Shown here: piece by piece, positions 3,238-56,371 of the stretch
How positions within the stretch are numbered: the stretch's first letter is position 1
How the letters are laid out: each line of letters opens with the position of its first letter
Origin: Escherichia coli
GTDB lineage: Bacteria > Pseudomonadota > Gammaproteobacteria > Enterobacterales > Enterobacteriaceae
Assembly (NCBI RefSeq): GCF_003334355.1
Contig: NZ_QOWP01000002.1
DNA length: 64,000 bases
Direction: 5' to 3' (one strand)
Position numbers and translations under genes: made by a program
The notes under the pieces: generated by a model
The model's input: the letters and a program-made list of their open reading frames with translations, nothing else
Told to the model about the DNA's origin: nothing
Databases searched by the model: none

Positions 3238-3408
3238 TATACTCTAAATAATTCAAATTGGTCCGATCCGGCGCAACGTCCCAATGGCCTGGATTATAAA
3301 TCTCATTATCTTAATTGCAACGGGGTCCAGCCGTGGTTATAATTCGTTCGTTGGAACACGATGTTGCACAGGCTGCGGTGTTGGGCCTGAAAATAGTAAA
3401 TAAAAGAA

Positions 3409-45933: not shown

Positions 45934-45962
45934 GATAATGCAAACGATAATAATTATCAATC
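45934..45962. promoter_or_regulatory. Fur box(es) in the cirA upstream region
   Basis: gataatgcaaacgataataattatcaatc contains GATAAT hexamer repeats resembling the Fur consensus GATAATGATAATCATTATC. Confidence 0.55.
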
Positions 45963-46010
45963 CAAATGTTAAATTTTATATCCGCATGATTTGTCAGGGA
46001 AATGGAATTG

Positions 46011-46035
46011 AAAAAGCCCTCTCGGTTGAGAGGGC
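46011..46035 (-). terminator. Rho-independent terminator downstream of lysP
   Basis: gccctctc-ggtt-gagagggc hairpin; the minus strand reads hairpin then ttttt. Confidence 0.6.
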
Positions 46036-46056
46036 TTAGCAAGGAAGGGAGGAAAC

Positions 46057-47526
46057 TTATTTCTTATCGTTCTGCGGGAACTTCATTTCGCTGTAGCGTA
46101 CGAAGTGAGTTCCTTTAATCAGCTTGTAGCCGAACCAAATAATCAGGAACAGCGGGATACCAATATACGTTGCCGCTACGCCGCCCCAGTCAATAGTATC
46201 TTTCAGGAACGCTTCGTAGTTCTGGCCCAAAGTGATAATCAGACACAGAATGAATGCGAAGATCGGCCCCAGTGGGAAGAAACCTGAACGGTACGGCAGA
46301 TCGTTAATGTCGTGTCCCTGCAATACGTAACCGCGACGGAAGCGATAGTGGCTAATGGCAATCCCCAGCCAGGCGATAAAACCCGTCATCCCGGAGGTGT
46401 TCAGCAGCCACAGGTATACCGTCTGGTTGCCAAACATGGAGGTCAGGAAGCACAGACCGGCAATCACCGTCGTCGCATACAGCGCATTACGCGGCACGCC
46501 ACCACGCGACAGTTTAGCGAAAATGCGCGGCGCTTTACCGTCACACGCCAGGGTGTACAGCATACGAGTAGACGCATACATACCGGAGTTACCCGCTGAC
46601 AGCACCGCCGTCAGAATAACTGCGTTCATCACCGCCGCCGCAGAGAGCAGACCCGCGTGCTGGAACACCAGGGTGAACGGACTAACGCTGATGTCTTTAA
46701 CATCGTTACGCAGCAGGCTCGGATCGGTGTACGGAATAATCAGGCTGATAATCAGGATCGCGAACACATAGAACAACAGGATTCGCCAGAACACCTGACG
46801 TACCGCGCGTGGAATGTTTTTCGCCGGATCTTCGGACTCGCCTGCAGCAATACCGATCAGCTCGGTTCCCTGGAAAGAGAAGCCGACAATCATAGCTACG
46901 CCGATCATCGCCGCAAAACCACCAGCAAACGGCGCTTCGCCGATTGTCCAGTTGCTCCAGCCCGCAGGCTGCGCGCCTTTGAAGATACCGATAATCATCA
47001 GCACGCCAACGATGATAAAGACAATAACTGTCGTGACTTTGATCAGTGAGAACCAGTATTCCGCTTCACCAAAGCCACGAACTGAGATGTAGTTCAGCAG
47101 GAAGATAACGCCGAGGAACAACGCACTCCAGATCCAGCCCGGTGTATCCGGGAACCACCAGCTCATGACCAGCTGAGCTGCAACCAGGTCAACGGCGATA
47201 GTCACCGCCCAGTTGTACCAGTAGTTCCAGCCCAGCGCGAAGCCAAAGCCTTCTTCAACATAGTTCTGACCGTAAGTGGCAAACGAACCGGAAACCGGCA
47301 TATATGCAGCCAGTTCACCGAGACTGGTCATCAGGAAGTAAACCATCAGGCCAATCAGCATATACGAGAGCAATGCCCCGCCCGGACCTGCCTGAGAAAT
47401 CGTTGCGCCAGAGGCAACAAAAAGACCTGTACCGATGGAACCGCCAATGGCAATCATCGTCAGGTGACGCGCCTTTAATTCACGGCGTAAGCCCGGCGCT
47501 TCTGTGGTTTTAGTTTCGGAAACCAT
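46057..47526 (-). CDS. lysP: LysP, lysine-specific permease of the APC family (489 aa)
   Basis: 12-TM amino-acid permease. Length and N-terminus MVSETKTTEAPGLRRELKARHL match. Confidence 0.95.
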   Translation of the reverse strand: MVSETKTTEAPGLRRELKARHLTMIAIGGSIGTGLFVASGATISQAGPGGALLSYMLIGLMVYFLMTSLGELAAYMPVSGSFATYGQNYVEEGFGFALGWNYWYNWAVTIAVDLVAAQLVMSWWFPDTPGWIWSALFLGVIFLLNYISVRGFGEAEYWFSLIKVTTVIVFIIVGVLMIIGIFKGAQPAGWSNWTIGEAPFAGGFAAMIGVAMIVGFSFQGTELIGIAAGESEDPAKNIPRAVRQVFWRILLFYVFAILIISLIIPYTDPSLLRNDVKDISVSPFTLVFQHAGLLSAAAVMNAVILTAVLSAGNSGMYASTRMLYTLACDGKAPRIFAKLSRGGVPRNALYATTVIAGLCFLTSMFGNQTVYLWLLNTSGMTGFIAWLGIAISHYRFRRGYVLQGHDINDLPYRSGFFPLGPIFAFILCLIITLGQNYEAFLKDTIDWGGVAATYIGIPLFLIIWFGYKLIKGTHFVRYSEMKFPQNDKK

Positions 47527-51782: not shown

Positions 51783-51837
51783 CAATGTTGCCGGATTCGA
51801 CGCTTGACCGCATCTTATCCGGCTCATAAATTGCGCA

Positions 51838-53088
51838 CTACGCTAAACCAATAAAGAATCCTGCAATAGTAGCACTCATCAGGTTAGAAAGTGTCGCCGC
51901 CGCCAGCGCGCGTAAACCAAGTTGGGCGATTTCCGGCGCACGGTGTGGCGCAACCGCAGAAAACGCCCCCACCACCACCCCGATAGAACCAAAGTTAGCG
52001 AAACCGCACAACGCGAAAGAAATAATCGCCACGGTTTTAGCATCCAGAGTGCCACCCGTTTGCAGATATGGCGAGAAATTGAGATAAGCGACAAATTCAT
52101 TGATCGCCAGCTTCTGCCCAATCAAACTCCCGGCAAGATTTGCATCACTCCAGTCAACCCCCATCACCCACGCCAATGGGGCCAACAGGTAACCTAAAAT
52201 GGACTCCAGCGAGGCATGTGCAAAACCAAACCAGCCGCCAACGCCGCCGATAATACCATTAATTAACGCAATGATGGCGACAAATGCCATAACAACTGTC
52301 GCTACACCGGCGGCGATTTTCAGCCCGGTCATTGCCCCTGTCGCAGCGGCTTCAATAATGCTTTTTGGCGGTGTTTCGGTGAAAGAGAGGTTATTAAAGG
52401 AAACCTGCGAAGATTCCGTAGCCGGGCTTAACAGGCGGGCAAACAAGATCCCGCCTGGGATCGCCATTAACGATGCCGCCAGCAAATATTCCACAGGTAC
52501 GCCCAGGGCGGCGTAACCAATCATTGTCGAACCAGCAATCGAGGCCATGCCACTACAAATCGCTGTAAATAATTCATTGCGATTCAGACGATCGATAAAG
52601 GGTTTGACGATCGCCGGAATTTCGTTTTGCCCGAGGAAAATGGTGGTGACCGCGACGAATGACTCAATCTTGCTGATATTTAATGCTTTCTGGAATATAC
52701 CGCCGAGAATGCGAATTAAAATCCCCATCACACCGATGTAGTAGAGAATACTCACCAGTGCAGTGACGAAGATAATTGCCGGTAATACCCTGAAACCAAA
52801 GATAAATCCTGCGCCATCAAACAGCGTGTCCATTTTCGGCCCGACCAGCGAACCGAAGATAAATGCGCTACCCGCGTCGCTGTACGCCATCACTTTATGC
52901 ACGCCAAAAGCGACTTTTTCAGCGACCCAACGCCCTGGCGGTAACCAAAGCATAATCCCGCCAATCACGACCTGTAACACTAACGCCGCGCCAACGGTAC
53001 GCAGGCTGATCTTCTTCTTGTTTACTGACAGCAAAAACGCAATCGTCAGCAATACCACCATTCCCAGAACACTTCTCATGACATCCAT
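51838..53088 (-). CDS. nupX: NupX (YeiJ), CNT-family nucleoside permease (416 aa)
   Basis: Near-identical paralogue of PsuT in this window. Confidence 0.9.
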   Translation of the reverse strand: MDVMRSVLGMVVLLTIAFLLSVNKKKISLRTVGAALVLQVVIGGIMLWLPPGRWVAEKVAFGVHKVMAYSDAGSAFIFGSLVGPKMDTLFDGAGFIFGFRVLPAIIFVTALVSILYYIGVMGILIRILGGIFQKALNISKIESFVAVTTIFLGQNEIPAIVKPFIDRLNRNELFTAICSGMASIAGSTMIGYAALGVPVEYLLAASLMAIPGGILFARLLSPATESSQVSFNNLSFTETPPKSIIEAAATGAMTGLKIAAGVATVVMAFVAIIALINGIIGGVGGWFGFAHASLESILGYLLAPLAWVMGVDWSDANLAGSLIGQKLAINEFVAYLNFSPYLQTGGTLDAKTVAIISFALCGFANFGSIGVVVGAFSAVAPHRAPEIAQLGLRALAAATLSNLMSATIAGFFIGLA

Positions 53089-53187
53089 AGTTATTATCTC
53101 TTCATGTCATATTGGGCGACGGCTTTCTGCCCATCAGAAATAGCCGGGCTTGGATCTTGCGATACTGACCCGGCTTGTTATCAACAC

Positions 53188-55027: not shown

Positions 55028-56278
55028 TTACGCCAGACCAATAAAGAACCCGGCAATAGTCGCACTCATCAGGTTGGAAAGCGTTGCTGCTGCCAGCGCC
55101 CGTAAACCAAGCTGGGCGATTTCTGGAGCACGTTTTGGCGAAATAGCCGAAAATGCGCCAACGACAACACCGATAGAACCAAAGTTAGCAAAACCACAAA
55201 GCGCAAAGGAGATAATCGCAATGGTTTTCACTTCCAGCGTGCCGCCCGTTTGCAGGTATGGGGAGAAACTCAGGTAAGCGACGAATTCGTTAATCGCCAG
55301 TTTCTGCCCAATCAGGCTACCCGCAAGATTGGCATCACTCCAGTCCACACCCATGATCCACGCCAGCGGTGCCAGCACATAGCCAAAAATACTTTCCAGA
55401 GAGGCATTGGCGAAACCAAACCAGCCACCAATTCCGCCGATAATGCCGTTGATCAGCGCAATAATTGCGACAAACGCCATTACCACCGTCGCTACACCAG
55501 CGGCGATTTTCAGCCCGGTCATCGCACCGCTCGCCGCCGCTTCGATAAAGCTTTTTGGCGGCGTTTCGCTGAACGACAGATTTTCAAATGTGACCTGCGA
55601 AGGCTCGGTGGCCGGGCTAAGAATACGTGCAAACAAAATACCACCTGGGATCGCCATCAGCGATGCCGCTAACAGGTAGTCAATTGGTACGCCCATTCCG
55701 GCATAACCAATCATCATCGAACCAGCAATGGACGCCATCCCGCTACAAATTGCGGTAAACAACTCGTTGCGATTCATGCGATCGATAAACGGTTTAACGA
55801 TCGCCGGGATCTCATTTTGCCCGAGGAAAATAGTTGTGACTGCGACAAAAGATTCGATTTTGCTGATGTTAAGAGCTTTCTGGAAAATGCTGCCAAGGAT
55901 GCGAATCAGCAGCCCCATCACGCCAATGTAGTACAGCAGACTGATGAGCGCAGTAACGAAAATAATCGCCGGAAGTACGCGAAAGGCGAAGATAAAACCC
56001 GCACCGTCAAACAGGACATCCATTTTCGGCCCAACCAGCGAACCAAAAATGAAGGCGCTACCGGCATCACTGTAAGACATCACTTTATGAACGCCTAATG
56101 CCGCCTGTTCTACTGCCCATTTTCCCGGTGGGAAGTAGAGCATGATGCCACCAATAGCGATTTGCAGCAGCAGTGCGGCTCCAACCGTACGCAAACTGAT
56201 GCTCTTTTTATTCACTGACAACAGAAATGCTATTGCCAGTAACACCACCATCCCCACAACACTTCTCATTATGTCCAT
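55028..56278 (-). CDS. psuT: PsuT (YeiM), putative pseudouridine/nucleoside transporter of the CNT family (416 aa)
   Basis: Paralogue of NupX in this window. First gene upstream of psuG-psuK on the same strand. Confidence 0.9.
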   Translation of the reverse strand: MDIMRSVVGMVVLLAIAFLLSVNKKSISLRTVGAALLLQIAIGGIMLYFPPGKWAVEQAALGVHKVMSYSDAGSAFIFGSLVGPKMDVLFDGAGFIFAFRVLPAIIFVTALISLLYYIGVMGLLIRILGSIFQKALNISKIESFVAVTTIFLGQNEIPAIVKPFIDRMNRNELFTAICSGMASIAGSMMIGYAGMGVPIDYLLAASLMAIPGGILFARILSPATEPSQVTFENLSFSETPPKSFIEAAASGAMTGLKIAAGVATVVMAFVAIIALINGIIGGIGGWFGFANASLESIFGYVLAPLAWIMGVDWSDANLAGSLIGQKLAINEFVAYLSFSPYLQTGGTLEVKTIAIISFALCGFANFGSIGVVVGAFSAISPKRAPEIAQLGLRALAAATLSNLMSATIAGFFIGLA

Positions 56279-56371
56279 AATGATTTTCCCTTCATGCCAG
56301 TAAACCCGGCGTCAGCGCCAGGTTTTGGTATGTTTGATGAGTACGGGCGACGGCTTTCTGCCCGTCAGAAA

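Follow-up and report, generated by a model that had tools for sequence, protein, structure and literature searches.

Far upstream of cirA, which encodes a receptor for siderophores and colicins, in the Escherichia coli DNA analysed here (a single stretch of 64,000 nucleotides, hereafter the window), lies a short array of GATAAT-type hexamers. Do these repeats form the operator through which the iron-sensing repressor Fur controls the gene, and what does their distance from the start codon imply? With near certainty, the array is the long-known Fur operator of two cirA promoters; it was described before this work and is ordinary in every respect but one rare base.

A hexamer array in the lysP-cirA spacer

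The sequence GATAATGCAAACGATAATAATTATCAATC occupies window positions 45934-45962 on the plus strand, at -171 to -199 from the cirA ATG. These 29 bases are exactly those quoted by the earlier note, which had singled them out from the sequence as Fur-box-like repeats upstream of cirA. The gene itself (43772-45763, minus strand) encodes 663 amino acids; the translation of the reading frame is that of CirA, and every matching E. coli genome has the gene under the name cirA. To the right of the array lies lysP (46057-47526, minus strand), whose intrinsic terminator, a 10-pair stem followed by a run of T, spans 46014-46037 on the same strand and sets the cirA promoters apart from lysP transcription. 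The array falls downstream of this terminator, within the 293-bp lysP-cirA spacer. The window is collinear with MG1655 and 98-99.5% identical to it, which identifies it as E. coli, and only two differences are found in 5 kb around cirA. Near cirA, a window position p corresponds to p + 2201006 in NC_000913.3 and to p + 2199028 in NC_000913.2.

The array reads GATAAT-GCAAAC-GATAAT-a-ATTATC-aatc, with perfect hexamers starting at 45934, 45946 and 45953. Its core is a 7-1-7 inverted repeat, cGATAATaATTATCa (45945-45959, centre 45952), which agrees with TGATAATNATTATCA at 13 of its 14 specified positions and is the top-scoring 7-1-7 site in the 64 kb. The more restricted 6-1-6 pattern GATAAT-N-ATTATC occurs exactly once in the window, and with one mismatch allowed it is matched twice, against 0.11 matches expected by chance. 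No other place in the window has a cluster of even two perfect GATAAT/ATTATC hexamers, whereas this one has three in 29 bp.

We compared the array with what is expected of a Fur box. For the consensus GATAATGATAATCATTATC or the inverted repeat TGATAATnATTATCA, the agreement is 13/14 in the 7-1-7 form and 15/19 in the 19-mer form (45940-45958). At least three GATAAT-like hexamers in a 6-bp register, as in multi-dimer binding, are present with the starts given above. A scan of the window for the 19-mer Fur consensus with three or fewer mismatches returned no match; this cut-off is too strict, as genuine Fur sites score below it, the cirA site at 15/19 among them.

Several other features of the window were recorded along the way. 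The second-best 7-1-7 Fur-like site, TGAGAATAATTATTA (32857-32871), is centred at 32864, 163 bp before the preT (yeiT) ATG at 33027, and matches the 19.6-bit cluster listed as 'yeiT -163' by Chen et al. 2007 (PMC2189734), which is predicted there and not experimentally supported. The sequence GATTATAAATCTCATTATC (3292-3310), in the AT-rich spacer between yehK and yehL, matches 15 of the 19 positions of the 19-bp Fur consensus; on its sequence it may be a chance match, and Chen et al. 2007 (PMC2189734) mention neither of these two genes in their main text. Between preA and mglC, two direct copies of an 88-nt unit (35497-35584 and 35613-35700) are 89% identical and, judging from their REP-like palindromes (GCATCCGGCA...GCCGGATGC), probably represent a BIME/REP cluster. 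The nupX/psuT paralogues (55037-56296 and 51836-53100) share approximately 79% DNA identity over 1.26 kb.

Fur binding, promoters and the cirA leader

The array coincides with a published site of Fur binding. The cir DNase I footprint, determined by Griggs & Konisky 1989 and placed at NC_000913.2 2244957-2244999 by Chen et al. 2007 (PMC2189734, Table 3), maps to window positions 45929-45971 and contains the whole of 45934-45962. The same study predicts three overlapping Fur sites at cir, the strongest of 20.7 bits and centred at NC_000913.2 2244980, "-189" from the start codon (PMC2189734). That coordinate corresponds to window position 45952, on which the palindrome is centred. The cir site is also one of the eleven footprinted sites behind the E. 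coli Fur model (PMC2189734). Repression of cirA by Fur, in vivo binding of Fur upstream of the gene and co-regulation by Fur and RyhB have likewise been published (PMC4676285; PMC7157518), and transcriptional repression made a fur deletion strain necessary for assays of cirA-lacZ fusions (PMC2588501). The earlier note had read the GATAAT hexamers as fitting Fur regulation of cirA; the footprint, the three-site cluster, the repression and the in vivo binding bear this out.

A promoter scan of the minus strand found two pairs of sigma-70-like -35 and -10 hexamers, both of which overlap the Fur box. The p1 -35 hexamer TTAACA (45967-45972) is conserved across genera, and the p1 -10 hexamer TATCGT (45944-45949) lies within the Fur box. 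For p2, the -35 hexamer TTGATA (45955-45960) is the left half of the Fur palindrome, and the -10 hexamer, again TATCGT (45932-45937), overlaps the first GATAAT. The cirA leaders from p1 and p2 are 173 and 160 nt long (Griggs et al. 1987, cited in Guillier & Gottesman 2008, PMC2588501), which would place the two starts, each at an A on the minus strand, at 45936 and 45923. The p1 -10 hexamer fits the former position, and the two starts fall 8-9 nt downstream of their -10 hexamers against a typical 7, a difference that is within the error of S1 mapping. These lengths agree with the long cirA leader that the earlier note had deduced from distance. A transcription start far from the site, named there as what would refute the reading, is not what these leaders give: p1 starts at about 45936, inside the first GATAAT, and p2 at about 45923, 11 nt downstream of the array. 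Overlap of the box with promoter elements and starts, the latter from that literature, is a further property expected of a Fur operator.

With these starts, the array covers -26 to +3 of p1 and -39 to -11 of p2, and the footprint covers -35 to +8 of p1 and -48 to -6 of p2. From the footprint and the geometry of the hexamers it therefore follows that Fur covers both promoters directly, and repression is by classical promoter occlusion, at both promoters at once. The operators of iucA, fepA-fes, fhuA and ryhB are alike in having several sites in a 6-bp register over the -35 and -10 elements, and in acting by promoter occlusion (PMC2189734). Unlike them, the cirA operator serves two tandem promoters and, owing to a leader of 160-173 nt, is at a far greater distance from the start codon.

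Scanning for a CRP site gave no match to TGTGAn6TCACA better than 8/10; this one is at 45798-45813, inside the leader and not upstream of the promoters. This sequence, TGGGTTATCGCTCACA, is the best CRP-like match in the spacer. Activation of cir by cAMP-CRP has reportedly been observed.

The leader from p1 (45764-45936, minus strand; 173 nt, PMC2588501) contains the region that pairs with OmrA/B, at leader nucleotides -35 to -10 (45773-45798, minus strand), where it overlaps the ribosome-binding site; nucleotides -19 to -10 are enough for control, and a deletion from -149 to -54 largely keeps it (PMC2588501). Within the OmrA/B region, the block ACCTCATGGAGA shows no or almost no variation across 19 genera. 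The predicted fold of a 194-nt leader (-46.8 kcal/mol) did not differ from the mean of shuffled sequences (-46.7 kcal/mol; z = -0.02), and thus no unusually stable structure was seen. Comparison of 45600-46100 with Rfam (E <= 1) yielded three sub-threshold matches; all of them fell on the hairpin of the lysP terminator, and the leader had none. Pairing RyhB with the whole leader in RNAduplex gave an unrealistic full-length duplex, which was discarded.

Other regulators act on the cirA mRNA. Salvail et al. 2013 reportedly found that Hfq holds down the translation of cirA and that RyhB lifts this block; in EHEC, cirA is repressed by the sRNA Esr41. Across the aligned loci (L005-L069) we also observed three conserved leader blocks: one about 20 nt past the start, which is AGGATGAAG in most genera and AGGCTGAC in Escherichia; an A-rich block in mid-leader, CACnTCTGCAnAAAAA; and TGTGAGC at about -65. 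The blocks AGGATGAAG, CACnTCTGCAnAAAAA and TGTGAGC are possibly Hfq or RyhB sites.

Conservation and competing explanations

The conservation of the box was assessed in one genome per species, giving 80 cirA loci; the genera covered include Escherichia, Salmonella, Klebsiella, Raoultella, Kluyvera, Enterobacter, Leclercia, Citrobacter, Buttiauxella and Atlantibacter. In the 250 bp that precede the cirA ATG, a 7-1-7 box matching at least 11 of 14 positions was found in 73 of the 80 species, and one matching at least 12 of 14 in 60 of the 80. In the controls, the highest score was 11 for 250 bp of cirA coding sequence and 10 for shuffled upstream sequence. Presence of the site upstream of orthologous genes, which is expected of a genuine Fur box, thus extends to 73/80 species. 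Box positions 1, 3, 4, 5 and 13 are invariant, and positions 2 and 6 nearly so. The best-conserved block of the spacer, ATTGATAAT-n-nTTATC-nTT-nnn-TTTATCnT, comprises the box together with both -10 hexamers.

Across species the centre of the box lies between -94 and -215 from the ATG, with a median of -187. Most genera have a long leader, with gains and losses in its middle part, in line with the largely intact OmrA/B control after deletion of -149 to -54. The cirA promoters of Salmonella, Klebsiella, Kluyvera, Enterobacter and other genera resemble this one in the conserved ATTGATAAT block and differ from it in leader length, which varies through mid-leader indels. The closest relative is the E. 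coli K-12 cir operator, which shares the locus, the -189 position, the two overlapping promoters and the flanking lysP and yeiG genes. Its 293-bp cirA-lysP spacer is identical except for one base, at 45951, where the core reads GATAAC-a-ATTATC in K-12 and GATAAT-a-ATTATC here.

These data bear on what else the repeats could be. AT-rich intergenic DNA might yield such hexamers by chance, with no regulatory role, and the window indeed has roughly double the number of GATAAT/ATTATC hexamers seen in its shuffles (65 vs 29). However, none of 300 dinucleotide-preserving shuffles attained three hexamers in 29 bp, the array has the top 7-1-7 match in 64 kb, and conservation in 73/80 species together with the published footprint refutes a chance origin, to which we assign a negligible probability. 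It is also very improbable, if slightly less so, that the repeats are merely the -35 and -10 elements of the cirA promoters, with iron control located elsewhere, for example solely in the action of RyhB on the leader. The hexamers do coincide with promoter hexamers, and RyhB activates cirA post-transcriptionally. Against this stand the Fur footprint on exactly these bases (PMC2189734), the in vivo binding of Fur upstream of cirA (PMC4676285), the transcriptional repression that obliged cirA-lacZ fusions to be measured in a fur deletion strain (PMC2588501) and the conservation of the palindrome beyond what a promoter needs.

The remaining explanation is that Fur acts as a roadblock, or from a distal operator, far upstream of the true promoter, which would imply a short leader. 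What lends it some appeal is the position of the site, at -189, when most Fur-regulated genes in Chen et al. 2007 have theirs at -25 to -90 from the start codon (PMC2189734). Yet the mapped starts give leaders of 173 and 160 nt (PMC2588501), the box and the promoter-like hexamers overlap, the stretch closer to the ATG holds no promoter of comparable conservation, and the leader has functional sRNA sites (PMC2588501). We consider this explanation extremely unlikely. The operator of two overlapping promoters is the reading that we retain, and none of the evidence speaks against it.

A model of cirA control can be proposed on this basis. When iron is plentiful, Fe2+-Fur dimers would occupy the overlapping GATAAT-type repeats, that is, the core palindrome at 45945-45959 and additional hexamers in a 6-bp register out to 45934. 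Approximately 43 bp would then be bound (45929-45971), covering the p1 -10 element and both the -35 and -10 elements of p2, so that RNA polymerase would be shut out of both promoters. When iron is scarce, Fur would depart and transcription would begin at about 45936 from p1 and about 45923 from p2, producing mRNAs with leaders of 173 or 160 nt. The leader provides a second, post-transcriptional control point, at which OmrA/B repress by pairing at the ribosome-binding site, Hfq represses translation and RyhB opposes Hfq. Because RyhB is itself repressed by Fur, the two form a coherent feed-forward loop on cirA.

A rare base in the operator

The base in which this spacer departs from K-12 is rare within the species. 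At position 45951 this strain has T, and nearly all E. coli have C, including MG1655 and the nearest complete genomes, C10 and NCTC9008. Among the 5370 complete E. coli genomes that match a 76-bp probe, 5369 carry C, and T is found elsewhere only in strain SCU-115 (NZ_CP054368). The second GATAAT (45946-45951) depends on this T, so that almost all E. coli have GATAAC in its place.

The substitution has two consequences for the sequence: the 6-1-6 palindrome becomes perfect, and the minus-strand TGtTATCGT becomes TAtTATCGT, by which p1 loses its extended -10 TG. A perfect palindrome and the loss of the TG would both be expected to lower cirA expression. Across species, the variant site is position 9 of the box, which is G in 40 and A in 33; the two bases are thus about equally frequent, and both states are compatible with function. 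On such comparison of sequences, the variant is probably of little effect. The literature on Fur binding, transcription starts, iron regulation and sRNA control all concerns the K-12 allele, with C at 45951, and we infer that the T allele of this strain behaves in the same way.

A further rare difference lies in the gene itself. At window position 44352, in cirA codon 471, this strain has C where the reference genomes have A, giving the substitution V471G, which is present in 9 of 5330 complete E. coli genomes. The compared 16-kb stretch has three more differences from C10 and NCTC9008, at 41815 (yeiB), 50598 (nfo) and 50992 (yeiI), which makes five in all; that the cirA locus holds two of them is not significant. 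An adaptive regulatory role for the C-to-T change at 45951, as opposed to neutral drift or a sequencing error, is conceivable: together with V471G it might lower CirA levels, for example where colicin Ia/Ib, phage or catechol-siderophore antibiotics exert selection. We regard this as quite unlikely.

The site is useful as a positive control, in that a Fur operator was recognised and a long leader deduced from sequence alone. CirA is the entry route for colicins Ia and Ib and for catechol-conjugated antibiotics, and for this reason variation in its operator is of some practical interest.
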